A stretch of 45,480 nucleotides of DNA, counting the filler, from Sphacelaria rigidula (taxonomy: Eukaryota), in the NCBI GenBank assembly GCA_964200075.2. It is 2 parts of 2 records of this genome, joined end to end, with 100 filler letters (N's around TTAATTAATTAA, not from the genome) between each part and the next. Parts side by side here need not be neighbours in the genome. Positions count along the whole stretch, not along the records: positions 1 to 22,692 come from CAXNAA020000317.1; 1 more part is not named here. One strand, 5' to 3'. The position numbers and the translations under genes were made by a program. The notes under the pieces are model-generated. The model saw only the letters and a program-made list of their open reading frames with translations. It searched no databases and had not been told where the DNA came from. Of the stretch, positions 2,962 through 39,184 are shown piece by piece (the first letter of the stretch is position 1; each line of letters opens with the position of its first letter).

Positions 2962-3406
2962 AACACGGGATCTTACAAAATTGGGGATGGATCATTTATT
3001 GGGGATGGAAACCCGGAGGATTGAAATCTTCGTATCCGCCCCAACTATTCGAAATATGGTTCCATTCCTTCACCTACTGATGGCTATTGACAACTGCTAC
3101 ACGCCATAGAAATTTGGATTTCGAACACCGAAATGTTGGGGTCCTAGGTGAAAAAACAGTTTTGCGGAATTCCGGGTGTCCGAGCGGGCGCCAAAATGGT
3201 TCCGAAAGTTTTTTTTTCACCTAAGACCCCAACATTTCGGTGATCGAAATCCAAATTTCTATGGCGTGTAGCAGTTGTCAATAGCTATCAGTTGGTGAAG
3301 AAATGGAACCATATTTCGAATATTTGGTGCGGATACGAAGATTTTAATCCTCCGGGTTTCTCATCCCCAATAAATGATCCATCCCCAATTTGCAAGATCC
3401 CGTGTT
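2962..3406. mobile_element. Foldback/MITE-like long inverted repeat (~195-bp arms, ~55-bp spacer)
   Basis: 2962-3156 is the near-perfect reverse complement of ~3212-3406 (AACACGGGATCTT...GGTGAAAAAA / TTTTTTCACC...AAGATCCCGTGTT); GTGT on both flanks. Confidence 0.85.
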
Positions 3407-5479
3407 GTGTTTATTTTTTGGGCAATAGGATCGCAGCAGCCTGCCATGGTTGAGCAGCGAACTCGAGTTTTGTTTTGGTGCAGTCTAGGTTGGGTTTGCG
3501 CAATGTTGATATTCATGGCGATTGCTCGAGCAGGATGGCTGCGCCCTGTAAGCATTCGTATCTCGCTGGCGGCACCGTCGATTCTTACAACAGCGGAGAT
3601 GCATACGCGATTGCAGAGCAGCTACTACTGGCAGTGTGCAAACATCACGAGGAGAGGGCACGAGTTTGAGTATGTATGTGGTCACGGCCTAGCGGGTGCG
3701 GACCCCGTTGTTTGCGTGGATGCGTGGTCTCATTCGCGATAACAACGATTCCCAGCCCCTGGCGAAGGAAAAAAGGAAAAAACAAGACAGCTGGCGCACG
3801 GGCGCAGTAGGGGTTGACCACGAAAAAATGGTTTTCAAAAGTTTTTTCTCAACTATATCGGCCATGTACTTGCCATCTCTGATGGTTTTTTATGATCGAA
3901 CAATTCAACAACCGCTTTGTACAGCACCAGTTTCGGCAGCTTCCTTTCTATACTACACGAACTGGGCCAGCAGTAACCCGTATTTGCTTTTCACACCACA
4001 ACTGATCAAGTTTACCAAAGCAGCCCGACTTGAGCATATGGCCGTGAGCTGCAGACCAACAACCTGGTAACCCACGGCAGCGCCGCTGAATGAAGAAAAA
4101 AAGGGGGAAATGTACTGCATTACAGATGACCTCAACGACGGGACAAAAAAATAGGAAAGTCGGGATTCGAATTCGTGACCTCCATAACTGGAGTCTCCTC
4201 CACCACTTGGATTGAAGGGGCGCAGCGGTGTCACACAAAATGTCCCCGCCTGCGCCAAATTTGAGGTGTTTTCGGCTGAATGTTTCCCAAAATCTCCTCG
4301 ACGCAAATGCCCACAACGTGTAAGAAGGTGCCGCCGTATATCTCAAATGGATTGCTCTGCTTCGCAGTCGCGCTTCCAATCTTCTTTTTTCCTTTTCCTT
4401 TGTTTGGCTACTTGTCATGTATCGAAAAAAATATCACTTGTTGAAAAGTGCTTTTTTGACCCCTCTCCGTCGTTTTTGCCCCGAAAAGAGGGCTCAGCGG
4501 ATGTTGGCACCTGAGACCGTTCCAGAGCACCTTTGCGTTTTCCGTAGGTCATGGTGTAATGCGTGAGAAGACCGCGTGCTCAGAGGACCGCACCGTAGCT
4601 CGAAACACCTCAGTATCGACGTTTTCCAAAACCTTCTGTATAAGGACCGCTGAAAGATTCCCGGAAACTTGAATCGTGCTGCACGATTGAAAAACACTTG
4701 AAAATATTGTAGCACGACTCTGTACGATACGTGTACGAAACGTGGTCCAATCGTTTTCGTGCCAAAAAAGTGTACGATTGAGTGTCCGATTCAACGCCCC
4801 CTCTAAATTGCCTATAATACGCTCCGTGGCATCTCTTCGCGTCCCCCGTCGGCACCTGTCGTTTTTGCTCGAAAAAATGTGGTGGGGTGGACAACGGGGG
4901 ACGGGAGCACAAACGTGGCGCATTTCATGATCATCACGCCAAGGGGGGCCGAGGAAGCCGCCAAGGGGGGCCCGTGGGTGCTAGAATGTGGGCGCGGGCG
5001 CCACAAAGCTACATCTGCTTCGATTTCTCTCGTTTTTTTCGGTGATGGGTAGGGATCGGTCAGACGCACTCCTTGTGTCAAATTTCAGGGGCATCATAGT
5101 TTTCGGGCCCGCGCACAGGTGAGGTGTTTCTGTACTGCTGTAAATCTTTGCTTGAGGTTTAAAAATCGGCATCACCTCCGATTGCCTTCGTTTTTTTTCG
5201 AGAGCTTTGTTTGAAAAGGGCGCACACGCGTGCACAAATTCAGGCCCGACGGGCAGCGTGGTGAACGCCGGTGCAGCAAAATGTTTACACTTTGGGCTAA
5301 TAGTTGTGCCATTCAACACTGCATCTTGCTTTAAAAATCGAAATCTGCCCAGATTTGTTAAAAGATGAGTGCAACCCGACACTTTGGTGACGAGATATTG
5401 CTTGAAACGTGCTCGAATCAAGGAAGGGGTGGTGCTATCTAACGTACAATCGAGCCATTTTAACCATGACGAGGGACTA

Positions 5480-7930
5480 AAAACGAGGTCCTCTCACAGG
5501 ACTCAAACACAAAAAAAGCGTAGGGGCGGCTCTCAACACACTATAAGGACCACATTCCCTTCGGTTTCGGACGGTGGGGGTATGTTCCGTTGCCCGCAAA
5601 CGAATTTTCAAATTCTCAGGTGCGCGCCAAACGGCCAGCCGCGTGGCCGAGCGGCCGAGAGAGCAGCACGCGACCCGCGAAATTGGCACGAGCAGAGACA
5701 CGGAACAAGCACCTTTCGTCTCCGAAGAGCACTGGTCTCGATCCGCTGCTGTCTCGCTGCTCCGTTGCGGTCTCCCAAGCTGTGGTGTGTGGGCTGCGAG
5801 ATCGGGTGTGTGAGGAGGGTGAGAGAGGGAATCCCTCGGATAGGAAATGCGGCGGGTTCAGGGAGAAAAATTGTTACGCTTCGGGCGGGTTGCGGCGGAA
5901 CCACCAACTCAGCCACTACTCGACACCAGGTTTCTCCGTTCGACACCGGAGTTGTTGCTATCGGTTCGTGCTGAACATAGCTAGCGCATCAGGACCAAGA
6001 CACGTCGTGGTAGAGCGTATGCGGAGCGAGGGGGCGGCAGCAAGAGCAGGTGGGTTTGTACCTTTCTTGGCCTTTCGAGACAGCACGGGAGAACGGGACA
6101 GCACCTTCCACCAACCATGCACCCCGTCATGGCCGATGTCGGAGAGGAACTGTGGAATGGGCGTGTACCTCTCACCGACCACGCCAACCCCTTCTCAACC
6201 AACGTCAAGCTGTACCTTCCACCAGCTATGAACCCCGTCTTGGCCGATTTCGGGGCAGCACGGGGTGGTAGCGTACCTTTCACAAACCACGTACCCCTTG
6301 TTGGCCGAATTCAGAGTAGCATTGTACACTGGGAGTGTACCTCTTGCCGCTACTGTTATACAGCCCCCCCCCCACACGAGCACATGGGGGGAGGTCTGCG
6401 TTCAAAAAAATATTCGAGCGGTCATGGGGGGTGTACACACCGGGGCCGCCGACAAGGCGGGGATGGGTGGTATCTAGAGTATATGTCCAGTCAGAAAAGC
6501 AGCTGCGTCGTAGAAAAATGAGGTTCGCGTACAGGCCGCAGAACTAAAAACCCAGGCGCAGGAAGTCGTCCTACATACAGTAGGAGCGCTCTCCTGTCAG
6601 TTTTAGGCCGTGGGGGATTGTCTCGTGATCCACACAATCGCTTCCGTGTTCTCAAATGCGCGGCAGCCGACCGTGTGGCCGTAGAGAGCAGTGTACACAT
6701 GCAGACGCGCACAACTATCGAAGGTAGACACGATCACTCACACAAACACACACACCTTTATCCTACTCAAAGCTTAGTCGTCGTCCTCCGCCGCCTGTCG
6801 CCTTTGCCAGTGTTTCCCCTCGAGCCCGTGGGCTGGGCTGCGTGTACGGCGGGTTGCAGAGGGGGTCCCGCGGATGGTAATTGCGGCGCGTTCAGTGGGA
6901 AAAAGTGTCGCGCTTCGTGCGGTTTGCGGCGGAATCACCAAATCAGCGATTACTCGTCACCAGGCAAGGTACGGTAATTGAGGAGGTAGGGAAGAGGTAC
7001 ACTAACCCCTATAACCCACCGACAAAAGGTAACTGTGTGAGGAGGTAAGGCTGAGGTACAGCTGACCCCTTTGATCCGCCAGCAAAGGTACGACAAGCGA
7101 GGAGTACAGCTGAGGTACAGCTAACCTCTAATATCTGTTACAAAAGTACACTGTGTGAGGAGGTAGGGATGACGTCCAGCTGACCCCTACGATGAACGAG
7201 GAGGTTTAGCTGGGGTACAGCCGACCCCCGATATTCGCCAGCAAAAGGTACGATGAGAGATGAGGTACAGCTGACCCTTATAATCGGCCAAAAAAGGTAC
7301 GATAAGCGAGGAGACAGGGATGCGGTACAGCTGACCCTTACAATCGGCCAACAAAGGTACGATAAGCGAGGAGACAGGGATGGGGTACAGCTGACCCTTA
7401 CAATCGGCCAACAAAAGGTACGATAAGCGAGGAGGTAGGGATGAGTACAGCTGACCCTTGTAATCGGCTGCGTCGGAGAAAAATGAGGTTCACGCATAGC
7501 TCGCAGAAATAAAAGCTCAGGTGCAGAAAGTCATCCTACACATTATAGAAGCACATTCTTCTTATCGGCTTTAAACCGTAGGGGAACGTCTCCTGTTCCA
7601 CACAATCGCTTCCGTGTTCTCAAATGCGCGGCAAGCCGCAGGGGAGTGGACGACAGCGTACACATGCAGACGAGCACTCCTGTCGAAGAGAGACAGGACC
7701 ACTCACACACACCCACCTCGAGTCTCCTCAAAGCTTGGTCGTGGTCCGCTGCTGCCGATGGCCTTTGTCAGTCTATCAGTCTATCCCTTCGTGTCCGTCG
7801 GCTGTGTGTGAGCGAGGTGGGAGAGGGGATCCCGCAGATAGAAATTGCGGCGGGTTCAGAGAGAAAAATTGTTACGCTTCGGGCGGTTTGCGGCGGAACC
7901 ACCAAATCAGCCACTACTCGACACCCGGTG
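5480..7930. repeat. Composite repeat: three copies of a ~450-bp unit (~5480-5930, 6502-6965, 7467-7930) with intervening short repeats
   Basis: Shared blocks such as cacaatcgcttccgtgttctcaaatgcgcggc and ttgcggcggaaccaccaaatcagccactactcgacacc. Confidence 0.85.
6980..7470 (+). repeat. ~60-bp tandem minisatellite, ~8 copies
   Basis: Unit gaggaggtagggatgaggtacagctgacccttacaatcggccaacaaaggtacgataagc; related inverted copies at ~6100-6310 and ~9215-9250. Confidence 0.9.
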
Positions 7931-8319
7931 CTCCGTTCGCACCGCAAAAGTCGATTGAGTTTGAACATGTCCTGGCCATACGCACCACAAAAACACCACA
8001 AGCAACCAACTCATCAATGACGGGTCGAGTCTGGACGGGGGGGCGTACTCATTTGTTGCTTGCCTTAGTCATTTGACCATTGACCACGCATCCCTTTCGA
8101 GACGGAGCACCGTTCCTACTCCTAATAGAGACACCTCCAACATTATGGCGCCCATTACTTTCAGACGACGGGGGGAACGAAGGAAATTCGGCGCAGACTG
8201 GAGCAACATGAGGACAGAAGCAGAGAGGAAGGGGCAACAATACGTATAACAAATAATCACATGTTCCGCTGATGTGAAATGGTGCTACTTTCCGGACGAT
8301 TAGTGTGTGTGTCTTTTCA

Positions 8320-8770
8320 TGAGCATAAACCGCGCTAACCGGCTGACCATGTGTGTGTGTGTGTTTTCTTATTAGCGTAAACCGCGCTAACCGGCTGACC
8401 AATGAAAATACGTCAGTCTCAGCGGGTTTCAAACGAAAACGTTTTCTAACACGCGGAAGAAGCCACTGATGCAAAGAGTGGAGAACAGCAAAAGGGTTAT
8501 TTCAAGCCCGGCCGAAGCCAGGATATCATTCTATGCTGCATCTCCCAAATTGAAAATCGTACACTCCCAAGATCCAGCAGTCATCGTGTCAACGGCCAGA
8601 GTCAAAAACATGAACAAGTACATTATCGTAGCTCAACGCAAGCCCTCGCCTGAACCTAACAAGCCGTCTGTGTATGTGTGTGTTCTCATGTTAGCGTAAA
8701 CCGCGCTAACCGGTTGGCCAATGAAAAAACGTCAGTCTCAGCGGCTTGTAAAAGAAAACGTTCTTCTAGC
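8320..8770 (+). repeat. Short dispersed duplication (taaaccgcgctaaccggctgacca..., 3 copies)
   Basis: Copies at ~8326, ~8378 and ~8697; the latter two extend through acgtcagtctcagcgg. Confidence 0.8.
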
Positions 8771-11700
8771 ACATAGTGCCTTCCGAAGGAGTACACCGGG
8801 ATGAAGAGAAGTCAGATATTCTACTAAAAGCAGCACCCTCAAGCGAAATATTATCGACGTTGTGTGTGTGTTATTTTATTTTAATTGAAAGAAACAGTCA
8901 ACATCAAAGAAAGAACTGCTCTATGAGACGGCACTCACGGAGCGCCTCTTATTCAGAGGGTACGGTCCTTTACAGAGAAGGTTCATTATGCCGGCCGAGT
9001 ACAAAAACTCTTTAGATTCCCTAAAAATACAAAGTAGCCCCCATGCAAAACTCTGCAAGGTGTTAACAGCAGAACATATTTGTTACATTGATTTTTTGCC
9101 AGCAACATGGCGCGTGCAGAGAGAGCATCGCGGAACAAGAGGAAGCAGCAACAGCAGGTGGGTTTTTATACCTTTCGTGGCCAATTCCGGGGGAAGACGG
9201 GATGTTGGGACGACAGCACCTTCCACCAACCATGTACCCCTCGTTGGCCGTGGAAAGGCAACCGTAGAATGTAACAAGCGCAGCAGCAGCAGCAGCGGCA
9301 GCAGCAGCAGATGTGGTGCCGGAAGCAGTGGCCGGTATAGTCGATGCAGCCGCCATCGCACCGTCGAGCCGTCGGTCACCCCGGTCACAATCCCGGTCGT
9401 TGCCTCCCGCCCCCGGCGCGACCAGTTTTCCCTCCTTGCGTTTGTTGACATGTCCTATGTGTGATAGGAGGAGTAGGGGGTTCATCACCGATACCTGATC
9501 AGAGATAGAAAAATGGTGAAAAATCGAGCCGAAGAATCGCCTATTGTCGAGTCAGCTCATCAAGACAAAAATGCGACTTGTTGTAATCACAAACAATGGG
9601 AAAGGTTGTGTCTTTCCTTTTTTTCTCCGTACGAGAGTGAGGCGACCGGTGGGTACTCATCACCACACCCCCCCAAAGAGATACCTTGCGAACCTGGGAG
9701 CTAGCCTCCTAGATTCACTTTGGTTTCTGATGTTATTTTTGGAATTGACGCGTGTGGGCCAAGCACACTCGCGTGCAATTTGGTTTGGCATCAACAAACG
9801 AAATGGCGACGACTTAGATAGATATCAATTTTCATGTAGGCTTGCTTTAAAAATCGGGATATCGAGATCTTCTCAGACCGACTCTGGGTAGGTAGTGTTG
9901 ATGGAGATCTAGGAAGAACACGTTGGATATGTTTATTTTTGCCAACGGATGTTTTGCGGCCGAGAATTGAGCAAAACGTGTACACGCAGTTTTCAGAGAG
10001 AGGTACCCCGACCTCTTATTTTCGGCCGATGGGGGGTTTTGGTCAAACATAACGTTTGGAGGGGGGTGGGAGGGGTTACACACGGAAAGTAATATCCACA
10101 TACAAGTACGCACGCACGGAAACGAGAGAAGTCAGCAGGCGCGCTAAAACTAATTATCGCACGCAGGAAGACACCTTGATACCATAGGAATGGAATCCTA
10201 CCATTTCTGCCTGCTGTGGTGGCAGCTGGTAGCCCGTATCGTCGCTTCTTCTGTTGTCCAAAATGCGCCCCTGGCTGGTCCGTCAGACACGCGCACACAC
10301 GTTTACACGAGAGAGACGGACAAATATACCTTTGCAGAGGCATTCTACTTTTCCCCGAACGCTACAGCTCGGCAAACACCCCGTCCTCGCCGGAAGCTCC
10401 AACCTCGCGCCCTTATCGGTCCCACTGTTATTTGGCGGCCCCGGCAGACATGCTCTTGATTTCTTTCGTTTGATTAGACCGTTGACCATTGCCTTTTGAT
10501 TGGAGCCAACGTAGTAGGCGATTCGTTGCAGTTCGTTAATACAGTTTCCCCACAGACACACCTCATCGCCAAAGGTACAGTCTGATCACCTTTCGAATTC
10601 ATATAAAGGCTCGGTCAGGAGCGCGTTTCGTCCCGACAGAGAGCCAAGGGAGGAAGGGATTATCGGGAAAACAACAAGCTCCGCAAAACAAGATGCACAT
10701 GGAAAATAAATAATTTTCCGATGAAAACATTTAAAACGATCCCGGTTACAAAATATTCGTTTTGTTTTTTGTTTTTTGGAAGAAAGGAGTTGCACGATGG
10801 GGCGGGAATCACGGTGCCCCGTGGGGTCCGTTACCGCGAAGGGTCCAATTCTGCCCGACAAGTCTTCAAACAACGTGGGTATTTATTTTATTTTATTTTA
10901 TCAACCAACTCAGAGTGGACCCGGGACAAAGTTTTCAAATAATGCTATACCCATTGCCCTCGGGCGTACAAGGCCACGTATACGCTCCACGGATAGTGCG
11001 TGATTGCCAACTCTATCAAATTGCGGTCGACAACTTCTGCATGCGTCTTTACGTTGTTTTCTCGCCCCTCGTCACCATAAGGCCTCTGCTTCGTTGCGCT
11101 AATGTTCTGTGGTCAACCAACGCTGATAATGCCAGCGACGCATCGTCCTCCGACGTCAGACAGGGAAAGCGAAAAAAAAGTGGTGGATCACCATGTCTGC
11201 CTACCGCCCGCAGCATCATGCCGGAACCACAGAGTTTGTCCCTAGAGGGCATGAAAACAGAGCGCGACCGAGCACAAGATACCGCGTTGCGGTGCATGAC
11301 TACATCCATCAAGGACAGACCGAAACCAGTACGCCATTCCAACACAACAAAGGCATCCACAAAATCAATTTCGAGCGGGAACCCACGACACCCCACATTG
11401 ACCCGTCCAAAATAAGTCATCGCAGAGCGGGCAGCCGGTTTCCCCACACAAATGACACCAAAATCATGGTCCACTACAATCAAAAGCACGTGCGCCGCGC
11501 CGAATCTCTTCAGCCTAGTCAGCGACTTTATCCTGCCCCGTTCCTTGGGTCGACGAATGCGCCAGCCTTTGATCAATCCCCGAGACAGCTACTCTACAGA
11601 GCGCATATTCTGCGAACGCCCGGATGAAAAACGTTGCGCTCTGGTGGCATGAACACAACCATACTACATCAACACGCGACGGCCAACCCCCTGTTTTGTA

Positions 11701-11791
11701 GAGGAGGGGAAGCACGTCGTCATTGACGTGAATTCAACCCCTCGTCCAAGAACAACGAAATATGCTTCGACAGATCGATGGTGCGTTCGAC

Positions 11792-11989
11792 TCACATACT
11801 CGCGAACGTGTCACTGTTGCATTTCCTAACCCATGCGCACTCTTCCCCTCGCCCACCCCTGTCAACGAGCTGCATGATGGTGTGGGAACTGCAGAAGGGA
11901 GAACTGCCCCGCATTCCATGCACCTCGAACTTCTTTATCACGTCCTTAAGTTCGTCGTAAGCGAATCCTTGCAGAGGGGTAGGCCTCTC
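11792..11989 (-). CDS. ROCO last exon
   Basis: ttcag|ERPTPLQGFAYDELKD...MQLVDRGGRGEECAWVRK...*. Confidence 0.82.
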   Translation of the reverse strand, partial: ERPTPLQGFAYDELKDVIKKFEVHGMRGSSPFCSSHTIMQLVDRGGRGEECAWVRKCNSDTFASM

Positions 11990-12218
11990 CTGAAAAGAGG
12001 GATAGCGAAGGAGTGGGTTGAGAGAAAAGGTCGGAAAGAAACAAATGGGGCGCAGTCTTTTCGCGCAACGCGTTGCCTGTCGTGCAACGGTAGGGCGACC
12101 GTCCATAGTATTGGGCTCGGTACCCACAATTACCTAATGGGAGATTGCGTGCTTCCTATCCGGACGGCCTCCGACAGACTCCAACGTAACACACCGCAAG
12201 CGCAAAAAAAAGCCTCAC

Positions 12219-12503
12219 ATTTCGTGTCCCATGCCCGTGCGCAGCAGCCTGCCGGAGCAGGTCCGCCGGCCTCTCGCTGTCTAGGTTCTCCCCGGCGATG
12301 CTCGCCATCGCCTCGACGCCCGAGCTAAGCGACTCCTCGACTAACTTGGACAAGGCACCGCCGGCTTTCGTCCCGAGCGCAGCCTCGAAGTTTACCAAAG
12401 GAAGTGCCAGGCCGCTGCACACGTTGAAAGCAATCGTAGCGAGAGCCAGCCCCACCTTCGCGAACGGCACCGTCTTCTTCGCCCAGTCCAACAACTCCTT
12501 CGC
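12219..12503 (-). CDS. ROCO C-terminal exon
   Basis: 285 nt, phase 0-0; AKELLDWAKKTVPFAKVGLALA... Confidence 0.85.
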
Positions 12504-12881
12504 CTGATCATACGGAGGAGGGTGTGGGCATCAGATGTCTAACTGAATTAGACCGGTTTCCCCGCAGAAATTAGTTTGAGGATCCAAACTACGGGTGCTT
12601 TCAAGCTACCACACGCCCTGAAAGCTACCCAAAATGAAACGACCTGAGAACCCCATCCGCCTCTTCTTGGAAATAAAATCACCAAGTACAGGGACGTGCA
12701 CAATTGAGAGAGTGAAGGGATGCTCGCATTGCTCAAGAGAAAAAAAATGTTGAAGTTGGAAAAAAGCGATAGATAGACATACGTAACCGGCCGTTGCAGT
12801 AGTGTGTTGTACAAAAAACAAAAAAATACCATCAAAGCGTTGCTTGTTGAACTGATTTCCCCGGCAAGGAGGGCGACTCAC

Positions 12882-13107
12882 CTCGTATCCTTGCCCCTTG
12901 GGCCCGCACTCGGCGAGGCTCGTGTCCTGCGCGCATAGGAAGAAAGCACGCAACTCTCGCGTCGCTTTCCCCTCGCCTTCTCGTTTCCTGCCGAGGCACC
13001 ACTTCCGCAGTCTGGCCGACCATTCATCGAACGGTCTTTCTCTTTCCTCGAGGAGTTTATCGCTCGCGGGGGCGGGCAGCACGCACACCAGGCGTGGGAT
13101 CGGCCAC
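12882..13107 (-). CDS. ROCO C-terminal exon
   Basis: ctcag|G TGG...; WPIPRLVCVLP...FFLCAQDTSLAECGPKGQGYE|gtgagt. Confidence 0.87.
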
Positions 13108-14195
13108 CTGAGCAATCAAGGAAAAGGTGCAATACGATTGCATTAGCCGAGGCACATGCAACCTCGGGCAGCGTGGTTTTCGTCCGAGATGTTTCCGTCT
13201 TTTTCGTTGCATCAACCAAGGTAGATTTTACGGTGTGATACGAGAACAAGCCGTGCGCGTAGGAGGCAAGAGATAGGCAATGGCCGTGACCGCTAAGCAG
13301 GGCGAGATCTGGGATATCCACACCGCAAAAACGGTCTGATGCGGCACTGATTGATGTCGCATGATCGCATTTTTTGCCCGTGCCGGCGCACTGCCTCGCA
13401 CAACATACGAACAACCGCGAATGCGGCTATTCGGCGCCAGAATAAGGAGCCAAAATAGCGATGGTGAGAATATCATCCTCCCCCCCCCGTTCGGGCTATT
13501 GTCCGGTGCAAATCTGTGAACGGGAATGCGAAGCTTTTCGCTATCCAGTTGATAGGGAAGTGCTTCATTTCCTGAAATATCACGCAGCCGAGCCGCTCAG
13601 CGGTACAGACACGAAGGGGAGGTGTGGTCCTCGTGGCTGAAGGCTGGTGAGCAATATGTTTGAGGGATTGAACCGAGCCCAAGTCAAGATGAAAACCTGC
13701 GGCTCAAATAAGGGGAAATGTTACTTATATGTTTCACCGCAGCTGTCCAGCTGAAACGGAGTTTTGTAGCGCTCCTGACAGCTATTTCAATTAAACATCA
13801 TGACCGGATATTCACACGATTGAAGTCAAATTCGTTCGCTCTTGTTTCAAGCCTTGGGCTCAACGAAAGCCAGCATCTCAAACTGTTAAGGTACGTTTTA
13901 TGTTGCGGGACGCTGCGTCTACTGTGTTAAAATAGATCAAGAGGTGGCCGACCTTGAGCCAAAACAAAATGCATGAAAAACAACGAAGCTGAGGCTGGGT
14001 GGTGATATTTTTGAACTCACCAAAGATGGGCGATGGCATTGGCTGATCGCATCGCGGGGATTAGCTAAAACAAAAGGCGTGATTTCCGCCGTCTGTGTGA
14101 TGAGGACCACCCCACCTCAGAAAGCGAAGAGTAGTTGAGTCATCTCTACATCTATCCTAAGACCCCGAGATAAAGCTTATCCTTCGATTGCTCAC

Positions 14196-15690
14196 CGTAC
14201 GAAGGCCATGTCCTCTCTCATGATCCTATCCATCCTGAACTTCACGTTCATCTGGTCCCTGAAGACGCTCGAGACGCGCTCCACCAAGGCTTTGAGCTCG
14301 CCATCCGAGGAAAAAGCCGTCTCTTCTTCTTCACCACGGATGAGACCAAGGCCGGGGAACCCGTACCTGGCGTCGTTGATCAGCTCGCTAATCTGGTCGC
14401 CCACGTCGTGCAAGACGCTCCTTGCACTCTCGTCATGTACACCACCCCTTGCGTGGCATTCGATCCACGAGGTCCCATCATCAGTAGCCCGAAGCTCGTA
14501 CAGCAACACCAGGTGGTTCTTGAAGCTGAAACAGACCCCACGCTTCCAGCACGCCGTGATGCGCCCTTCCCCGCGTCCACACCATGCGAGAAGCCGAGGC
14601 ACCAGTTCGGGAGGCACGGCGTGCGCACCAATAAGCTTGAGCTTCTGTGAATAAATCGCACACCCGGGCTTCCGCTCCAGAAGCTTTGCTGGGTCCACTT
14701 CTGTCCCGGCTTCCTTTGGGAGACAGCTTGCGACAACGTAGCAGTCCGGTATGAAGTCATCGTAACCGTCACGAACTCGAAACATGAACCGGACATCAAG
14801 CAAGCTGCCCACCATCACGCTGATGTCCTCCTCCGACAAGTTGAGAGGCGGCGCTTGTTGACTTGCCTGGCCCACTTCCATGTCTCGCTGCCACAGAAAT
14901 TCCAGGTAGTCCTTGCTCACTTCTCCAGCCTGGACGAACCTCTTGTGCTGGTGCGAGAGTGGAAGGAGCTTTGGCCTTACTGATGACGATGCTTCCATCT
15001 CTTTGACCACCTCTGCCTGCTGCACGGGTCTACCTTCACGCCGACAATGCGGCGCACCACGTCAGCAAACCGGGACGGGTTCACGTGAATGATGATGTTG
15101 CTAGTTCCACCTTTCTGTTGAGCTCCTCCGCCTCCGTCAACCCGAGCCAGAAGAATCGCACCGTGAGCCTCATTTAGCTCGATGGCTTCGCGGAACACCC
15201 GTCTTTCCTGTCTTTGAAAAAACAATTTGGAAACCCGAGTGAACACGGTTTGCTGTTCGACAAAAAGAGACAGGGCCTCTGAGAACCCAATGAACGTTCG
15301 GGCTTCTTTGTGAGCCCCCCTCCCGAAGCCTTCGCGATACCTCGGCTGGAGTACCGTCCGAATCACCCAAATCCGCTCCCCGACGAACTGCTTCCAGCGT
15401 TGCGATGGCTGGCAAATAAGGCTCAGGTACGATGCTCATGACCGATGCGAACGAGTACCCCTCGTATCCGCTGTAGGCAATGTGCTCGATACGCTTCTGA
15501 AGCAGGTCAACATCGTGCCCTTCCGAGGAAGCGAGGTTCAGCGCAAGAACCTCGTCGTCCATCACAACGCGAAGGGGTTGGAAGCGGCGGTAGTCCTCCG
15601 AGTCCCGCTGTCCCTTCCCAACATCTTTTTCCCAGCGGTCTTTGGCCGACGCACATTCGGAGCGGATCCGATTCACGACCTTGGCCACAT
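14196..15690 (-). CDS. ROCO large exon: COR-like region (two frameshifts)
   Basis: Three overlapping ORFs (15170-15688, 14977-15366, 14192-15025) join into one protein via +1 at the C6 run 15315-15320 and -1 at ~15027. Confidence 0.85.
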
Positions 15691-16984
15691 CTGTTGATCA
15701 CGGACACAAGGGGTTATTTTGAACAACAGCGAACTTAAGTACTTCGTGTCGTAAGGTCATCGGAAGCTGTACTGAAGCTGATCGCTTGGAAATCGACCGC
15801 CCGCAGGATTTTTTTACGAGAGATGCGCGGACGAGAGTAACGGAATCGACAAGTGAAATCCGCTGGGTTGAGAATCGAACCTTCTAGGATGCCACTCATT
15901 TGGCTTGCTCAACTGTAGTCATTAGAGCCCCCGCCGCCTCAACACTCCCAACACTACCGAAAGAATACGAGAGAGCGCACGGGCCGGAGAGATCGCACCC
16001 CCGTGCGAAATAGAGTCAAGAACGAAGGGATCTTAGTCGCTATCGCACGAGTATCGGAGAGGTGCGATCTCTCCGATACCGAATGGTTCCGGGGCACTTG
16101 TTTTAGCTGCTGGTGTATCGCGGTTTTATCGTGAGTGAGCTCCACTGCTGTGTAGTTCTTGGGGAGCCGTCGAGTATCACATGCTTAGAACACTCGGAAC
16201 ACAGGATACTGCCATTTGGTTCCTTCGCATAATTTATGCATTCAACCACTCACGCAGAAAATCAAATGTGTCTTGACTTTCGTTAACCTATTCAGTATCG
16301 CGCGTATCGGAGATATGGCACCCGGGTGCGATAAAATGTAATTTGATTTTCGCACGGGGATCGGAGAGACTGTACGAATCGAAATATATCGAACCCCCCC
16401 TCCGATGAAAAGTGAAGAACGGAATCATTTGAAAAACGATCGCACCCCCGTGCGTTTTCTCGCATTCTTACGGCATACATTTAGCCATTGGCTCTGCCAC
16501 TAAATGTACACAGCGCGTTCACGCGGGACCCGATAGCTTCCATCACTCTGTTTCCGTTCCGCGGAACTTGATCAGGCGGAGTCAAGCATGCGAAGTGCGG
16601 CCTTACCGACGATGGCATCCAATACTGGGCGGTTGACTCACGATTAACAAAAAATAAAACTAGTCTCACTCAAAGCATACGTGGCTTGGAATCCCGGCGC
16701 ACGTGAGTTATTTCTCACTTCAAGTCTAGCAGTGGAGAGCGCTCGTTCGTGTGTACACAGTTCTAAGGGAGGAGACTGTTCAACTCTTCTAGTGGTGAAA
16801 CTGAAGGGATTACAGGGATAGACCTCGGATAGGCAGGTGGGGGCCCCAGGCAGACAGGACCGTTCTACGTGATCCCGGATTGGAACTCCCCGGCAGAAAA
16901 GCTGCGAGTGCTGGTCAAATGGGACGGGGGGCGGGAAAGGACAAGGGTACATCACAACAGTAACAGTTCGCCCCCACGGCCTAC

Positions 16985-17195
16985 CTCTCTTGAAGCCATC
17001 CTTTCGCGCTCTGGACTCGGCAAGATTCGATCCAAACAAATCGCTGTGTGTTCCCACGAGCAAAACCACGGCACCAGGGACTCTAGACTGAAGAATGTCA
17101 AGCCACTGCTCGAGCGCATCCTCCGGCGATTTCTTCACCGAACACGCATACAAGTCCACTACCAGGATGAGCAGAGCGCCTGCAGTGAGGAACAT
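16985..17195 (-). CDS. ROCO exon: ROC C-half
   Basis: cag|MFLTAGALLILVVDL...QWLDILQSRVPGAVVLLVGTHSD...G|gtag. Confidence 0.9.
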
Positions 17196-17367
17196 CTGGA
17201 TAACAGGCGGGCAGCGTCAAGGCAAGGGCGAGAGCATATGCGTAGTTGCCGTGAGCTTCTCAAAAGGGACAGAGAACGCTATCACGATACTTCAAAGTAT
17301 CCTATCTAGTCGTATGTACATGGCGGCAAAACGTTAGTCGTTGTTGGCTGTGTGTCAAACCTCCCAC

Positions 17368-17763
17368 CTGGTGCGTGTCGTAGTATTTGCCCAGCAAAAT
17401 CCCACAGGCTCACGTCCAGCGCGACGTTTGGCAACCTTTCCCCTGTGACGGGGCTGGACTCGAGCTTGATGTCCCTGATCTCCACGCCTATCGTGCGCTC
17501 CTCAAGTTCCGGGAGGCGAGAACTGAATCGGTCTTCGAGCCGGCCGGCAATGGTGGTCTTGCCTGCTTCGCCCAATCCCACCAATACAACCGTGAGGCGG
17601 TTGGACCATGTCCTGCCGTAGTCGTCCAAGTCTCTGAGGAACGAAACCGCATGGTCCATGCCCTTCGCCATCACACTGGCTGGTGGCTCCTTCCAGGGAT
17701 TGCCAGAGGTGGAGACATTCGTCGTTCTTGCAGCAAATCCTTCCGCCGCCGCTCTGGCAAATA
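17368..17763 (-). CDS. ROCO exon: ROC GTPase N-half (frameshift at ~17386)
   Basis: GNPWKEPP, VVLVGLGEAGKTT, ERTIGVEI; WDFAGQ is followed by one extra base before YYDTHQ|gt. Confidence 0.88.
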
Positions 17764-18553
17764 CTGACGAGCACAAACGGGCCGAAGCAAGGTGGAAGAA
17801 GGGGTTTGATTCTTACGGAATCGTTTCTTCCGCCGGGACCTCAGGGCGCAAAAGTCCAAGCTACCACCTTTGTGTAAACTGAATCTCGGCAGGCAGGCGA
17901 AAGAGCAACATCGCGGTTGACTAAAACCTAGGAAGCACTTTGTCAGAGTCGGTCCTGAAAAAAGCTGACGTGCAAATTTTGCGGTAAACGCTGACAAATT
18001 AAAGATACCCAAGCGACCGCTGAATTTCGTGATTGTTGAGATACTCGTGAGTGGTCGCGGATGTGTGCGTTGGTGGGTCAAGAACACTCACGCTTTGTTT
18101 TTGTTTTTAATGTTTCGTTTATTTCTCACAACCAAGTGAGAGGGACACAGACGCGCACATCCCAGACCAAGTAAGACCACCAATCCGCATCTTGAAAATG
18201 CCTCGAAATTACCATGAGAATAATTGCTGCTCTGACCGCGTCGCATTTGTACAGCGCTGCTTCCGCTTGCGGTATGCTGCCACAAGAGAGCCGTTCATTG
18301 AGTTTCCCGCAGATGCACGCCATACAATAGGAACACCTCCTTTGCGTGCTCATGGATGGCCGGTCCTCCTCCTGCCGACACCAACTGCGAACAATAGATT
18401 ACCCTGCTCATCCACGCGGGAGAAAAACATACGTTTTCTCCCCGGCGTCTAGAACGCCTACTAACCCACGGTGGGTGAGTAGGTGGGTGTTCTTGAGAGC
18501 GGGGAATTATTTGTTTTTGCCCGCTTAACTCGTATTTGTTTTTCTGCTTGCAG

Positions 18554-18625
18554 GTCCCATCCCCGCGGAGCTAGGGAAGCTTGGGGCCCTTCTGGAACTT
18601 AGGCTGTGGGGCAACGAGCTGGGTG
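18554..18625 (+). other. Intact antisense 72-nt LRR exon module (GPIPAELGKLGALLELRLWGNELG), inverted relative to the host gene
   Basis: ttgcag| ... G|gtgagt; 72 nt; phase 1-1; no stops; polypyrimidine tract intact. Confidence 0.92.
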
Positions 18626-18776
18626 GTGAGTTTTCTCAACTGGAAAGTCACTTGAGTCAATTTTCGGCTTCCATAGAAGATGTGTCCTGCGTACGCGTAG
18701 GCAGGATTCATGCTCGTTCCTCAGCTGAATTCAAAATATATAAAAATGAGTAATATGTCTGATTCTCTGGACTCAC

Positions 18777-18848
18777 CATCCAAATTGTTGAAGCTGAGGT
18801 CGACGGCCACCAAGGAGTGGAGATCTCCTAGCTGCGGCGGAATTTGCC
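18777..18848 (-). CDS. Sense 72-nt LRR exon (GQIPPQLGDLHSLVAVDLSFNNLD)
   Basis: ctcgcag| ... G|gtgagt; exactly one 24-aa LRR; phase 1-1. Confidence 0.92.
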
Positions 18849-19027
18849 CTGCGAGTAAGGGAGCAAACACGACTTCAGCGGGGAATAACGAAAAATATTT
18901 TCCCTGCTCCTGGAAGGCTACTCACCCACGCGAGTAGGTGTTCTACACGGCATAGGCAAAAAATATGTCGAGAAGCCGGGAGATTTTTAACAACTCCCCG
19001 CCGACTTCGTTTTCTTTTTGGCTGCAG

Positions 19028-19083
19028 GCCTTCCAGCTTCACAACACTGAGGCTCCTCTTCCTTGAAAAAAAACAGTTGAGTG
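19028..19083 (+). pseudogene. Decayed antisense LRR exon (56 nt; ...TLRLLFLEKKQLSG)
   Basis: ctgcag| ... G|gtgagt boundaries; LRR-like 3' half; 16 nt shorter than the 72-nt module. Confidence 0.75.
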
Positions 19084-19499
19084 GTGAGTCACACGAAAAA
19101 CGCGAGTTCCTGGTTTTCTGAGCTCAAAACGCGGGCGCACAACCACTTTGACATGCGGAATTTTAACAACATCACGCTGTGCCGCGGCAGTTAGGAAGTC
19201 TCAGCTCGGTGCATGCGGAAACAACAGGCCGGAGAAAAATAAGAACTCTGCGGAAAAGCAAGACCACTGTTACAAAAGCCTGTTTTATACATGGGTGCGA
19301 GGAAGATGTTTCAGAAAAACAACGCTTGGGATTTACCCGGGAAGGGGAACACGATAATAGGCCGTTGAGCGGGGCGTCTTCGGATGTCGAAGAGACAAGT
19401 CTCCCTGATTTGAAAACTGCCAAAATCCCCACGATTTCACACCGCGAGACAAATACACCGTTGATTTCACCACACAGCGTTCGCGACGTTTCCCCAGGC

Positions 19500-19988
19500 A
19501 TGGCTGCGAAAAGCCACGGCGGATGGATGTCAGCAAGGAAACCAACCGCCAAGCCTACCGGACCCGTGCGGAACGGATTCGTGGTCGAGATCGCTCCAGA
19601 GTACGACAAAAGACGCATACGAGCCTTGCAAAACAAAAGATACCGAAGGTCGTCTGTGTACCAGCAGCACTTGAAAGCCAGGAAAATTGATGTGGTGTAC
19701 AGGTGGCGCGTGTTCCAGGAGCAGGCTAAAAGGCGGAATATCAAAGTGTCGATTAGCTTTGACGAATACAGCAGCATCGTGCGCACAGCGTGCTGGTACT
19801 GCGGCGACTTCACATACAAGGGGTATTCAGGCGTCGACCGCGTGCAGACCGCGGGCACGTACCAGAAGGACGACGTTGTGGCTTCCTGTAAAACTTGCAA
19901 TCTTATGAAAGGATCACTTTCGGTCCACGAATTCCTGGGAAAGGTCAAGCACATCGCAAGAGCGCAACAAGTCACGTCCGTAGGGTAG
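19500..19988 (+). CDS. Intronless HNH-like (His-Me finger) endonuclease of viral/phage type, nested antisense in ROCO intron 1
   Basis: AKRRNIKVSISFDEY...CWYCG...GVDRV...TY..DDVV.SCKTCNLMKG..S..EFL matches the CxYC/GxDR/CxxCNxMK HNH family. First in-frame ATG at 19500; the frame is open upstream to ~19179. Confidence 0.8.
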   Translation: MAAKSHGGWMSARKPTAKPTGPVRNGFVVEIAPEYDKRRIRALQNKRYRRSSVYQQHLKARKIDVVYRWRVFQEQAKRRNIKVSISFDEYSSIVRTACWYCGDFTYKGYSGVDRVQTAGTYQKDDVVASCKTCNLMKGSLSVHEFLGKVKHIARAQQVTSVG

Positions 19989-20005: not shown

Positions 20006-20180
20006 CTTTGAGATTGTTGCCGCCCAGAGAGAGCCTCACGACGCGGCCGTCGTCGTTGACTTCGACTCCGAGCCAACCTTTGATCGGGGCATCCGTGCCC
20101 CAATTGGTGTTGTTGTTCCAATTAGCTCCACCGGTCGACCGATGCAGGACAAGCAGTACGTCACGATCGGCCGAAGCCAT
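20006..20180 (-). CDS. ROCO exon 1: LRR N-terminal cap
   Basis: ATG at 20180; 175 nt ending AAA G|gtact (phase 1). Confidence 0.9.
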
Positions 20181-22692: not shown

Positions 22693-22792
22693 NNNNNNNN
22701 NNNNNNNNNNNNNNNNNNNNNNNNNNNNNNNNNNNNTTAATTAATTAANNNNNNNNNNNNNNNNNNNNNNNNNNNNNNNNNNNNNNNNNNNN
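22693..22792. other. Assembly gap with artificial TTAATTAATTAA linker
   Basis: 44 N + TTAATTAATTAA (22737-22748) + 44 N, 100 nt in total. Confidence 0.95.
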
Positions 22793-33089: not shown

Positions 33090-34305
33090 CTCAATCAACG
33101 CCCTACTCTCAATCTCACGAAACCATTGCTACCTGCCGCTGACACACGATTGAGAGGTAAAAGTCCCGAAAGGATTAACCCTTGGACCGCAATCAACGCC
33201 CTATTTTCAATCTCACGAAACCATCGCTACCTGCCGTTGACACACAATTGAGAGGTAAAAGGTCTCGAAAAGATTAACCCTTAGACCGCGAGGAGGGTAG
33301 TCCATCTGGATCATGCTTACTTTTTCAAGTGAGATTGATGCCGATTCAACAGGTGACCTACTCTTGCCGTCTAAGGGATACCCTTGGAACGCGATCAACG
33401 CCCTACTCTCAATCTCACGAAAACATTGTTACCTCCCGCTAACTCACGGTTGTGAGGTAGACGGTCCCAAAAGGGTTAACCCTTAGACCGCGAGGAGGGT
33501 AGTATATCTGGATCACGCATAGTTTTTCAAGTGAGATTGATGCCAATTCAAGAGGTGATCTACTCTTCTTGCCATCTAAGGGTTAACCCTTGGATCGCAA
33601 TCAACGCCCTACTCTCAATCTCAAGAGAATATTGTTACCTACCGCCAACACACGATTGTTGTGAGGTAGATGGCCCCAAAAGGGTGAACCCTTAGACCGC
33701 AAGGAGGGCAGTCCGTCTGGATCGCGCATACTTTATCAAGCGGAATTGATGCCGATTAAAATTGTGACCTACTCTTGCCCTCTAAGGGTCAACCCTCAGA
33801 CCGCGAGGGTAGGTCACCTACTGAATCGGCACCAATACTCACTTGAAAAAGAGTATGCATGATCCGGGTGGACTACCCGCACCGCGGTCTAAGGGACACC
33901 CCTTGGACCGCGATGCGGGTAGTCCACCTGGATCACGCATACTTTTCAAGCGAAATTGGTGCCGATTCAGCATATGACCTACCCTCGCGGTCAAAGGGCC
34001 GCGGTGCGGGTAGTCTATCTGCATCATGCATTCTCTTTCCAAGTGAAAATTGATGCCGATTCAGCAGGTGACCTCTTCTCGCGGTCGAAGGGTTGACCCT
34101 TAGACCGCGAGGGTAGTCTATCTGGATCATGCATCATGCTTTTTCCAAGTGACATTGATACCGATTCAAAATATGACCTTTTCTCACCATGTACGGGTTA
34201 ACCCTTAGACCCCGAGGGTAGTCCATCGGGATCATGCATATACTTTGCTCAAGTGAAATTGATGCCATGTCAACAGATGACCTACCCTCGACGTCAAAGG
34301 GTTAA
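33090..34305. mobile_element. Tandem array of ~12 piggyBac-like ~100-bp units joined at AAGGG-TTAA-CCCTT
   Basis: TTAA-like junctions at 33175, 33274, 33378, 33476, 33583, 33685, 33789, 33896, ~33998, 34093, 34198, 34302; unit ends CCCTTAGACCGCGAG...CTCGCGGTCNAAGGG. Confidence 0.8.
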
Positions 34306-35084
34306 GGACTACACCAGCATCGACACTACTGTGTGTGTGCGTGTGTGTTGCCATCCCATCTCTTGTAAGCACCGGTCTACATCTTCCGGTGTATGTGGGC
34401 GCACCATCCGGGGTCACACAGGAGAAAGGACAACACAGGAGTTTTCATTTTTTTTATTTGTGATAGTTCTTACTTTCCTTCTGCGGTGCCTGCCTTTTAT
34501 TTTTTATAGCGAGAGGGGTTCAGCAGTCCCTTCCTCTCGTCGACCGTTAAGTCGAGTTTCGTGTACCCATGACATCGTTGCTCTCCACTATTGGGCATTG
34601 TGTGAGAAAAAAACCAGATCGCTCCGAGATTTGAACCCACGACCCACTGGAAGGCGATGGCACGCTGACTCTTTCTTGCCGTTTAATCCAGCGGAGGCAT
34701 ACCGCACGCATACTGACTCTGCACGCTCTTGACTGCATGGTCAAAACAGGTCAGGAGTCCCTGGAACTGCCTTCTGCATAGATGCTCAGCATCCACATGA
34801 TTATACACATGATCATGAGAAAATGCGTTTTGTGTAGCGAGAAAAGAGCTGTTCTGAACCCCACATGTGGCATAGTCCATCTCAGTCCACCTGCGGGGTC
34901 GCTGAGGGTTAACCCTTGGACAGCGAGGGCAGGTCATCTGTTGAATCGGCATCAATTTCACCTCAAAGAAGTGTGTATAGTCTAGATGGACTACGTTCGT
35001 GGTCCTCACACCGTGGTGGTAGTCCACCTAGATTATGCATTATTTTCTCAAGTGAAAATGATGCCGACTCAACAGATCGCGGTC

Positions 35085-35830: not shown

Positions 35831-36766
35831 AGGCCTGTGTTTGGGCGCTCGGCCGGAGCGATCTCAGTCAAGGCATATGTACTAGTGGTGATATTCAAGT
35901 AATGATAGTGCGACTGACGCCTCAACGCTCAGGGAGAAGAAGGTTGCCGCGATAGCCAAATATATCTATGTACACTTCCCTAGGGTGTACGGGGCACCTT
36001 GGCGCCAGGCGCGGCACGTGGTGAGCTCCAACAAAAAAACTGCTGCAGAAAGGAGGCAAGTTAGGTAGTGATGGAGAAATAGAGAGGTAGGTGTCTCCAA
36101 CAGCGAGAGAGGTGTGGACGGCCAAGAAGGAGACTCGAGACGGGCTGAAGACAAAATGAAAAAATTCCTTTCAAGTCCGCAGAAAGAAAACGGAAAAAAA
36201 AACCCTGTAGTGATCACAGAGAAACGGAAGAATCAAATGTTGCGAAACGGGGGTCAAACGGCTGGGAGCGTCACTGGGCGCGAAAGGAGGTCAAACGGCT
36301 GGAAACGTCACTGGTTCCAGAGTAAATTCCGCGCGAATGGCTGGCGAAGTCACTCGTGAAGTGGTGCTGAAGTGGCAGAGAAGAGAGTATGATAATCCGA
36401 GAGAGGTAAAGTTGTCAGTGGTAAAAGTGGTAGAAAAGGTGAGATTCCGAGGGAGGGGTAGAGGTGCGAAAGTCGCAGAAAATTGCGAAATTCTGAATAA
36501 ATAAATCGACGAAAGCGCAAATTCCCAACAGTAAATAGGAGATGCTGTTCATCACAGAGAAACGGAAGAATCAAATACTGGCCGCTGGTGCGTCGGACTT
36601 CGGAGGAAGGNNNNNNNNNNAGGAAGGGTGCGCTGTCAGGCCCCGTAATTGTTGCACCTGCATCCAGAGACCCGGAATGTGGACAAACTTAATGAATAAG
36701 AATAATACAAGGTGTTTGGCGCTTCGCGTCACCGCTCAATGGAGCGATTGCCAAGGCGAATGTAAA

Positions 36767-38578: not shown

Positions 38579-39184
38579 CTGTCATCTTGCCCCATTCCTG
38601 ACGTTCGTGGTAATTTCATGGCAGTCATGCAAGCAGAGGAGAAGAGAAAATCGAGCGCGTCGACGAGCCGTAATACTGCCAACAAGGAAAAACTAGCAAG
38701 AGGAACGAATCGTACTCGGATTTTCGCCATGATCTCGACAAAGTAGGTTATGCTCCTAGCATTTAGCTTTGCTCGTGCGGCTGTCGTGTTACTCCTCTCT
38801 CTGCCGTTGCTATCAGCCGAACTCACCTAGGACACGACATATTCATGTCGTGTCCATATGATCGACAGTAGCCACACTGAAGCTTGAACGTTGCCAGTGG
38901 CTGCACTACACTCAAAATCACATCAAAAACGTCATGGGCGCTGTCATGAAACGGAGTGGTGATATACGCCCCACTGCGGTAGTCACGTTTTTAATAATGG
39001 AACTCACAACTGTAACTCAAGAAGATTTCTTCGTCATATCAATTCAACGCACTCCAAAGCCATTCAACAGTTTCAGAACGTCTCAGCTGCGTACTTATTG
39101 TCGGATCAACGATGCGTCGGGAACATTGACTTGAGAAGCTCCTTCTGGGTAACTGGCAAAATAGCACGGTCCTGCATGCGCAAC

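Follow-up and report, generated by a model that had tools for sequence, protein, structure and literature searches.

Palindromic sites as candidate seams of an LRR-exon cassette mosaic at a ROCO locus of Sphacelaria rigidula

In the ROCO genes of brown algae each leucine-rich repeat (LRR) is encoded by a 72-nt exon of its own, and intact LRR exons, splice sites included, also lie on the non-coding strand of introns, as the main text of Zambounis et al., 2012 (PMC3341825) describes. That text left the mechanism of exon shuffling open, and by 2024 neither a recombinant locus nor a recombinase had been reported in the available text of PMC11378527. Here we describe a locus of this kind in a 45,480-nt stretch of DNA from Sphacelaria rigidula (assembly GCA_964200075.2; the whole stretch, filler included, is hereafter the window). 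We focus on the palindromic sites, or dyads, in the spacers around its intact LRR exons at 18403-18945, which a reading made from the sequence alone (hereafter the sequence-only reading) had proposed as recombination signals. In assembled contigs of a related alga two adjacent pieces of this region are inverted in place, and two of the three breakpoints lie within 2 nt of a dyad centre. We give a probability of about 0.5 to the reading that the sites are seams of an LRR-cassette mosaic, produced during evolution by dyad-centred breakage followed by end joining.

In its 72-nt LRR exons of symmetric phase, its exons on the non-coding strand and its downstream Roc domain, the locus resembles those described for brown-alga ROCO shuffling in the available text of PMC3341825 and PMC11378527; new with respect to that text are the seams, a flip between species with its breakpoints, and the use of a non-coding-strand exon by an antisense gene. 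The terms 'palindrom', 'inverted' and 'recombination signal' have 0 occurrences in the main text of PMC3341825, as have 'palindrom' and 'hairpin' in the text of PMC11378527. Neither text describes junction dyads, mapped breakpoints or antisense exon use, and the supplements, which lay outside our scope, may list orthologous non-coding-strand exons. A literature search on brown-alga exon shuffling with palindromes brought up no account of junction dyads, mapped breakpoints or antisense exon use in the text that was accessible, where palindromes are mentioned for CRISPR only. The locus offers a base-level example in which two related algae differ by cassette flips, so that a receptor gene and an antisense gene trade an LRR exon, and a first sequence-level clue to how the exons of candidate immune receptors may be shuffled. 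If the pattern recurs genome-wide, the question of whether shuffling is targeted becomes directly testable; if it does not, the palindromes are mere seams of old inverted duplications.

In V(D)J recombination, segments can be inverted in place, fused signal ends are palindromic, and the other joints are imprecise, with a few bases added or lost. Palindromes can also provoke breakage, as in hairpin cleavage by Mre11-Sae2 in yeast and in palindromic AT-rich repeat (PATRR) translocations in humans, where the palindromes are much longer or AT-rich. The invertible segments of Hin/Gin and the Rci shufflons have conserved crossover cores and a linked recombinase, and the variable lymphocyte receptors (VLRs) of lampreys arise by somatic copy-choice through short homologies between cassettes.

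Judged from its sequence, the present locus is a brown-alga-type LRR-ROCO gene on the minus strand. The following exons define it:

20006-20170, minus strand: ROCO exon 1 (MASADRD...GGNNLKG), from sequence reading
18777-18848, minus strand: LRR exon Q, intact, 72 nt, QIPPQLGDLHSLVAVDLSFNNLD, from a scan for AG, 72 nt and GT together with the LRR motif
17306-17763, minus strand: ROCO exon encoding the final LRR and the P-loop of Roc (GLGEAGKTT), from Pfam and protein relatives
18554-18625, plus strand: LRR exon P, intact, 72 nt, PIPAELGKLGALLELRLWGNELG, from the same scan and from spliced contigs
19028-19083, plus strand: decayed LRR exon inside ROCO intron 1, with an in-frame stop in the LRR frame

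The stretch 17306-17671 on the minus strand matches Roc (PF08477; E 8.5e-07, 29.7 bits against a cut-off of 27), the sole match among the 8 of 31 open reading frames (ORFs) of at least 120 aa that were scanned with Pfam. The best relative is an LRR-Roc protein of Laminaria digitata (92% identity). Of 2085 candidates, 17 proteins reach E <= 0.001, and brown algae are the named source of 15 of them. Exons P and Q have the form of brown-alga type I LRR exons, 72 nt between splice sites and encoding one 24-aa LRR (GxxPxxLxxxxxLxxLxLxxNxLx), and the Roc GTPase domain lies downstream of the LRR exons on the same strand. The phase of exon Q fits those of ROCO exon 1 and the Roc exon, and exon P and the decayed exon at 19028-19083 lie on the ROCO non-coding strand within ROCO intron 1, an intron of the LRR domain. 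The cassette architecture belongs to the known brown-alga ROCO exon-shuffling class.

One cassette consists of an intron of ~80 nt followed by a 72-nt LRR exon. Four copies lie here in alternating orientation (- + - +), and a four-copy alignment places their introns as follows:

18381-18470, minus strand: intron copy minus1, leading into a decayed LRR-like stretch further left
18471-18553, plus strand: intron copy plus1, whose acceptor at 18553 is used in RNA (spliced contigs)
18849-18929, minus strand: intron copy minus2, upstream of exon Q
18928-19027, plus strand: intron copy plus2, whose acceptor at 19027 is used in RNA (spliced contigs)

These four introns feed, in order, a decayed LRR exon left of 18381, exon P, exon Q and the decayed exon at 19028-19083. 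Their bodies are pairwise 66-75% identical, and 4 of the 6 pairs align better than all 200 shuffles. Together the two intact cassettes make up a large but imperfect inverted repeat, in which 18446-18631 aligns with 18771-18950 read in reverse complement, across the intron/exon border (score 99; blastn E 6.9e-9).

The palindromic sites lie where such cassettes meet. Direct reading found all four sequences listed by the sequence-only reading where it had placed them; they are given here with a fifth site:

18457-18483, no strand: head-to-head dyad, 13+1+13 around G18470, with one mismatch (A18463), by direct reading
18685-18706, no strand: central dyad with 11-nt arms, no spacer and one mismatched pair, centre 18695/18696, by direct reading and blastn (E 3.7e-4)
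18916-18945, no strand: second head-to-head junction, of the intron starts of minus2 and plus2; a weak dyad, homologous to 18457-18483 with a 5-nt deletion in one arm
18403-18420, minus strand: lone, decayed copy of the motif made up of exon end and 5' splice site, 2 mismatches away from GTGGGTGAGTAGG; it is no palindrome
18046-18092, no strand: spaced dyad with arms 18046-18056/18082-18092 (10/11 complementary), 25 nt between them and its centre at 18069; not in the first list

The first two sites were described correctly, and both are statistically real. As a DNA hairpin the head-to-head dyad, with its 13-nt arms and one mismatch, scores z -3.66 (18450-18490, -10.4 kcal/mol), and the near-perfect palindrome of the tail-to-tail spacer scores z -2.44 (18678-18713). 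The third, listed at 18918-18945, does occupy a head-to-head position and is a homolog of the 18457 site, but its arms are just 6 bp (CTACTC/GAGTAG) with 8 nt between, and 18910-18950 forms a hairpin no better than shuffles (z -0.89; 33/200 fold as well). The fourth was taken for a palindrome and is merely the decayed motif copy. A shared ACGCG core had been noted in most of the sites and is indeed present in 3/4, with 3 copies in 18400-18950 against 0.44 expected from the density in the window.

To place these sites against the background of the window, we counted strong dyads (arm 11, at most 1 mismatch, spacer 0-3) and used 30 first-order Markov simulations as the null. The 55 raw hits reduce to 8 sites outside (AT)n runs, compared with a simulated mean of 1.57 hits (max 7), and 2 of the 8 fall inside the 543-bp stretch 18403-18945. 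The motif GTGGGTGAGTAGG, at up to 2 mismatches, has 6 matches in the window against 0.90 expected, a number reached by 0/100 shuffles; 4/6 lie in 18403-18929, namely at 18403-18415 (-), 18457-18469 (-), 18471-18483 (+) and 18917-18929 (-). We therefore find it hardly credible that the sites resemble one another by chance, with no common origin. The shuffle-like hairpin at 18918-18945 and the missing dyad at 18403-18420 would suit that idea, but motif count, Markov simulations, blastn and the break test described below reject it, both for the main pair of dyads and for the cluster of motif copies.

What the arms consist of is plain from the alignment. GTGGGTGAGTAGG comprises the final bases of an exon, then a 5' splice site and the opening of one family of introns, and the CCTAC...GTAGG arms are the intron 5' end (GTGAGTAGG) on both strands, preceded by the exon-end GTGG. 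In the head-to-head dyads, then, two intron starts lie directly against each other and nothing of an exon separates them; 18457-18483 joins the 5' ends of intron copies minus1 and plus1. The sequence-only reading had called the 18457 and 18918 sites inverted homologs, and they are: 18471-18482 and 18918-18929 are 100% complementary over 12 nt, and homology continues over the whole of the inverted repeat. By this alignment the two head-to-head dyads are homologous, so they have one origin and not two. Between the arms of the inverted repeat, the dyad-bearing stretch is 29/33 (88%) identical, compared with 46/64 (72%) for the rest of the intron and 45/64 (70%) for the exon. The dyad stretch is thus the best-kept part of the duplicated flank, the outcome that the sequence-only reading had required of recombination signals; on such small numbers the contrast is suggestive.

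The central dyad has another make-up. It is the tail-to-tail junction of the intact cassettes P and Q, formed by two similar 16-nt ends that are 13/16 identical, and the remaining outer spacer is random-like (110/300 shuffles align as well). This combination makes the central dyad an island of similarity and not part of a long duplicated flank.

We then compared the window with contigs of run X5, from a related alga coded organism B, and considered the joints among the pieces listed. The window's own order was confirmed by a contig from another sample of organism A (run X3), which spans 17539-19915 with 0 differences. Three joints in X5 depart from this order. In the first, 18039 meets 18696 on opposite strands, on a contig of 447 nt that differs from the window at 6 places over the 272 nt of 18425-18696; in the second, 18695 meets 18854 on opposite strands; and in the third, 18852 leads to 18068, a jump back of 785, with AA as filler between them. 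One base, 18853, is lost. Because both have depth 162, the second and third joints were read as one contig, and the joint contigs as a whole have depth 162-165, matching a neighbouring single-copy contig (165). The sides of the three joints measure 147, 158 and 80 letters and share no letter ('both' = 0), i.e. there is no microhomology.

With each joint taken once, a single consistent order results for organism B: left flank to 18039, inverted 18068-18696, inverted 18695-18852 and right flank from 18854. The flipped pieces are a 629-bp piece with exon P and a 158-bp piece with exon Q, each inverted in place, and because both are inverted, exon P in organism B faces the ROCO strand and exon Q the plus strand, the reverse of the window. 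Whichever order is ancestral, the boundary 18695/18696 was used by both inverted segments. The right breakpoint (18852-18854) lies 4-5 nt inside the acceptor end of intron minus2, next to exon Q. Only in the window does exon Q directly adjoin its homologous intron, which makes the 158-bp flip the derived state in organism B. The 629-bp inversion could not be polarised by intron divergence, every pair being 66-75% identical. Nor is the ancestral order settled by the closest annotated relative, Laminaria digitata protein P0040, where two LRR exons separate exon 1 from the Roc exon; these match P and Q at just 13-14/24 residues. Two of the sites differ in sequence as well: A18463 is C in organism B, so that 18457-18483 is there a perfect 13+1+13 palindrome, and 3 nt are missing at 18412, inside the 18403-18420 site.

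We asked whether the breaks sit on dyads, counting as dyads, within 17900-19100, pairs of 11-nt arms with no more than 1 mismatch and up to 30 nt between them. Just 3 dyad centres exist in this region (18069.0, 18470.0 and 18695.5), and 1.08% of its positions lie no more than 2 nt from one of these centres. Breakpoints fall at 18695.5 (distance 0) and at 18067.5 (18067/18068; distance 1.5), so that 2/3 lie within 2 nt of a dyad centre, for which the chance of at least 2/3 is ~3.5e-4 by our own arithmetic, a value that is partly post hoc, the spacer limit having been widened from 3 to 30 after the 18046-18092 pair was noticed. The four motif-side DNA ends at the breaks start with CGTTGG, CGTACG, CGTAGG and AGTAAGG; their pairwise identities over 10 nt are 9, 7, 6, 5, 5 and 5 (null P(>=7) = 0.004, P(>=5) = 0.08). 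Both arms of 18046-18092 are donor-like, CGTGAGTGG on the plus strand and CGTGAGTGTTC on the minus strand. The proposal that the sites are recombination signals, with breakpoints mapping to them, thus holds in part. Two of the three breakpoints do sit at dyad centres, but only one of the listed sites (18685-18706) is among them, the second breaking dyad was not on the list, the third break lies elsewhere, the joints have no shared core, and the ORFs scanned gave no recombinase.

The joints suggest how the pieces were rejoined. Blunt joints, a 2-nt filler and a lost base point to double-strand breaks with end joining and not to homologous recombination between inverted repeats or to a conservative recombinase. 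In the mechanism we favour, double-strand breaks would arise at or beside dyad centres, because the DNA there is prone to form hairpins or cruciforms or because a nuclease prefers such DNA; the ends would then be sealed by non-homologous end joining in the inherited genome; and the 629-bp and 158-bp pieces, turned in place, would exchange the exons offered to ROCO and to the antisense gene. We infer that the dyads promote the breaks, and the same goes for the enzyme and for the direction of change.

Several further points weigh against this mechanism. The third breakpoint (18852-18854) lies at a dyad with arms of only 4 bp, which is at chance level, and the strongest dyad, 18457-18483, like the 18916 and 18403 sites, is not a breakpoint in the comparison of organisms A and B. 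With arms of 11-13 bp, the dyads fall on the short side for extruding cruciforms. In 45 kb the half-site motif of the central dyad matches twice, at its own two arms. Near the 18039/18696 joint, 28 letters of the 447-nt contig are unplaced, the length of 18040-18067. The comparison is a single one at one locus, made on assembled contigs instead of reads, and the X5 contigs could come from a paralogous locus and not from the ortholog. Finally, a seam of similar inverted copies is a palindrome by construction, which leaves cause and consequence unseparated.

This last point leads to a plainer account, in which the palindromes are passive scars, by-products of inverted cassette duplication that attract no breaks and bind nothing. 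It would explain why both dyad arms, each on its own strand, correspond to the 5' end of the intron, and why the head-to-head dyads share one origin and were left unbroken; every inversion seam between similar cassettes would read as a dyad, and the pattern CCTRC..GYAGG is not clearly enriched across the window (4 against 1.69 expected; max 5 in 200 simulations). Random breaks, however, are not expected to fall 0 and 1.5 nt from 2/3 of the dyad centres in 1.2 kb, nor to produce four ends with such similar starts. Around the central 16 nt the spacer is non-homologous, which leaves them as an island. Both halves of the central dyad are present but separate in organism B, so that either these halves pre-dated at least one event or the dyad was cut exactly at its centre. 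The separated halves and the exact hit on the centre argue for more than a passive scar, and we regard this account as rather unlikely.

Dyad-centred breakage recalls the palindrome-provoked breakage of yeast and humans, with which the locus shares breaks at the centre of symmetry, joints free of homology and small fillers. Breakpoints lie 0 and 1.5 nt from 2/3 centres, the third breakpoint not being at a significant dyad. The locus differs in its arms of 11-13 nt, set within an inverted repeat of ~190 nt at ~70% identity. To V(D)J recombination by RAG, the resemblance consists of inversion in place, head-to-head palindromes and imprecise joints; the events here, however, are differences between organisms, with no evidence of somatic ones. 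Signals of the RAG/Transib type (CACAGTG heptamer, A-rich nonamer, 12/23 spacing) are absent from both strands of 18000-19100, and the main text of Zambounis et al. (PMC3341825) reports no RAG in Ectocarpus. Like the invertible segments of Hin/Gin and Rci, adjacent segments here appear to flip independently, share a boundary site and change the module that faces a fixed gene. The marks of a conservative inversion system are missing from the joints, which have no identical crossover core ('both' = 0, AA filler, 18853 lost) and whose ends share a loose start motif only, and the 8 of 31 ORFs scanned include no linked serine or tyrosine recombinase, the neighbouring ORF being HNH-like. The lamprey VLR system, which the main text of PMC3341825 discusses, likewise has a pool of flanking LRR cassettes, in both orientations, able to supply a receptor gene; here, by contrast, whole intron-exon pieces were inverted in the inherited genome, with no homology at the joints.

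These comparisons bear on a stronger proposal, in which the dyads would serve as signals for a dedicated recombinase or nuclease that flips or moves the cassettes in a programmed manner, possibly in somatic cells, with the HNH-like protein encoded nearby as one candidate. Breaks at dyad centres, ends with a common start motif and the boundary 18695/18696 shared by both inverted segments would suit such an enzyme, as would the expressed HNH-like gene 650 bp away, whose transcript carries exon P; targeted recombination, its mechanism left open, was proposed in the main text of Zambounis et al. 2012 (PMC3341825). The joints, however, lack a conserved crossover core and one has filler; 18000-19100 holds no recombination signal sequence (RSS) heptamer or nonamer; the HNH-like family has Arg for the catalytic His and scores under the Pfam HNH cut-off; and the organism A contigs show no alternative joints among the pieces listed, although rare variants are lost in contigs. 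According to the available text of PMC11378527, by 2024 there was no report of a somatic recombinant ROCO locus or of a site-specific recombinase. We consider a dedicated enzyme improbable. The same low credence goes to the wider idea that the dyads are cis signals of LRR exon shuffling, in which a nuclease directed by structure or sequence would cut their centres and single cassettes would flip from strand to strand recurrently, perhaps somatically. Just as much of a long shot is its corollary, in which a flipped-out exon would be kept as an exon of the antisense gene and the multi-copy HNH-like family would supply the candidate cutter or targeter. If the cis-signal idea were true, flipping would switch the LRR carried by the ROCO receptor.

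A TIR DNA transposon, MITE or foldback element would be a discrete unit marked by terminal inverted repeats and a target-site duplication. If organism B has the order given above, a block of ~790 bp would have the two halves of the central dyad (13/16 alike) as terminal inverted repeats; no target-site duplication is visible in the flanks of this block, and the window holds no other copy of the end motif.

The neighbouring HNH-like ORF lies as follows:

19498-19988, plus strand: terminal exon of the plus-strand gene; it holds the 162-aa HNH-like ORF at 19500-19988 and lies within ROCO intron 1 in antisense

It ends 18 nt from the donor of ROCO exon 1. Among 49 candidates it has 39 relatives at E <= 0.001, and every named one is brown-algal. 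It matches PHROG endonuclease VII (4e-10) and HNH families, 12/14 PHROG hits being annotated as nucleases, while Pfam HNH scores 14.4 bits, under the cut-off of 21.4. The family conserves CWYC and CKTC pairs and one Asn, and a profile alignment to PDB 4h9d (E 0.022) places Arg where that HNH enzyme has the catalytic His of its DH pair. On these matches we describe the product as HNH-like and of uncertain activity. In organism B, depth over 19508-19963 is 3230-7440, compared with ~160 in single-copy contigs, which corresponds to roughly 20-45 copies. A scan of metagenome contigs with the HNH-like protein gave 68 pattern matches, none of them confirmed, and a scan of viral contigs gave 0 matches and no further loci; the metagenome contigs scanned likewise held 0 matches to the 27-nt dyad pattern.

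This ORF belongs to a plus-strand transcript that uses exon P. Contigs of run X9, presumed to be RNA, were mapped onto the window and their GT..AG joints noted; they have no cover over 17000-18481, which contains the Roc exon, and are uninformative there. All of the skip joints (4/4) are GT..AG on the plus strand: 18625>19028, 18625>19498, 19075>19498 and 19083>19498. A 228-nt loose end before 18552 matches 6937-6966 of the window, and a donor follows at 6968/6969. The transcript therefore runs through these segments, all from X9 contigs:

6741-6968, plus strand: exon ending at the donor
18554-18625, plus strand: exon P
19028-19083, plus strand: optional decayed exon, ending at 19075 or 19083
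19498->20400, plus strand: last segment, with the HNH-like ORF

Thus exon P is spliced into a plus-strand transcript though it lies on the ROCO non-coding strand, and the decayed exon is alternatively included. Donor-like motifs inside the dyads, including the start of plus1 at 18471, are unused in the X9 contigs. The LRR frame has no ATG after the upstream stop and before exon P, while the G|GC splice junction leads directly to the ATG at 19500; exon P most likely sits in the 5' untranslated region of the 162-aa ORF. The transcript and the ROCO gene look like a natural antisense arrangement. The 11.6-kb intron of the transcript (6969-18553) encloses the whole Roc part of the minus-strand gene, and one contig is unspliced from 19498 past 20400, antisense across ROCO exon 1. 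The first-exon sequence exists in two copies, at 5790-5945 and 6810-6975 (+), with 82% column identity; the donor used ends the second copy alone.

Transcription of the region bears on a further alternative, raised by the sequence-only reading as RNA hairpins that control exon choice: the inverted cassettes might pair in the pre-mRNA and steer the choice of LRR exon, or feed a small-RNA pathway. As RNA, 18440-18960 does fold into one long hairpin (-218.1 kcal/mol against -171.07 +/- 6.48 for 100 shuffles; z -7.26; 0/100 as good), so that the fold is physically plausible. Plus-strand transcripts of the region exist and are alternatively spliced, and the 18457-18483 hairpin lies 71 nt upstream of a used acceptor. 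But such a fold follows automatically from an inverted duplication, exon P is spliced in despite it, and nothing ties a hairpin to exon choice. Nor does covariation favour a conserved hairpin across the four intron copies, whose consensus fold is weak (-1.5 kcal/mol, covariation term -0.12). We give this RNA-level account little credence.

In all four intron copies a GGGGA-like G-rich stretch can pair with a downstream TCCCC-like C-rich stretch:

18497-18524, plus strand: G-rich/C-rich pairing
18975-19002, plus strand: G-rich/C-rich pairing
18877-18907, minus strand: G-rich/C-rich pairing
18416-18445, minus strand: G-rich/C-rich pairing

The longest of these is the GGGAGAAAA/TTTTCTCCC hairpin at 18418-18442, in copy minus1 and near the 18403-18420 site.

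Run X7, another organism A sample, covers the region only 2-7 fold, with holes over 18368-18709, and was uninformative about the order of the pieces. Its bins 17456-17569 and 18140-18253 have a depth of 17-18, compared with 2-4 elsewhere, and a 255-letter unrelated sequence stands before 18152; both bins are probably repeated elsewhere in the X7 genome. Elsewhere in the window, N runs occupy 22693-22736, 22749-22792 and 36611-36620, and four more strong dyads lie at 4669-4691, 16053-16077, 38831-38854 and 39192-39215. Finally, 33090-34310 is a satellite-like array with periods of ~100 and 202-210 nt that is rich in internal inverted repeats; its core, AAGGGTTRACCCTT, accounts for two of the eight strong dyads in the window (33574 and 34083).

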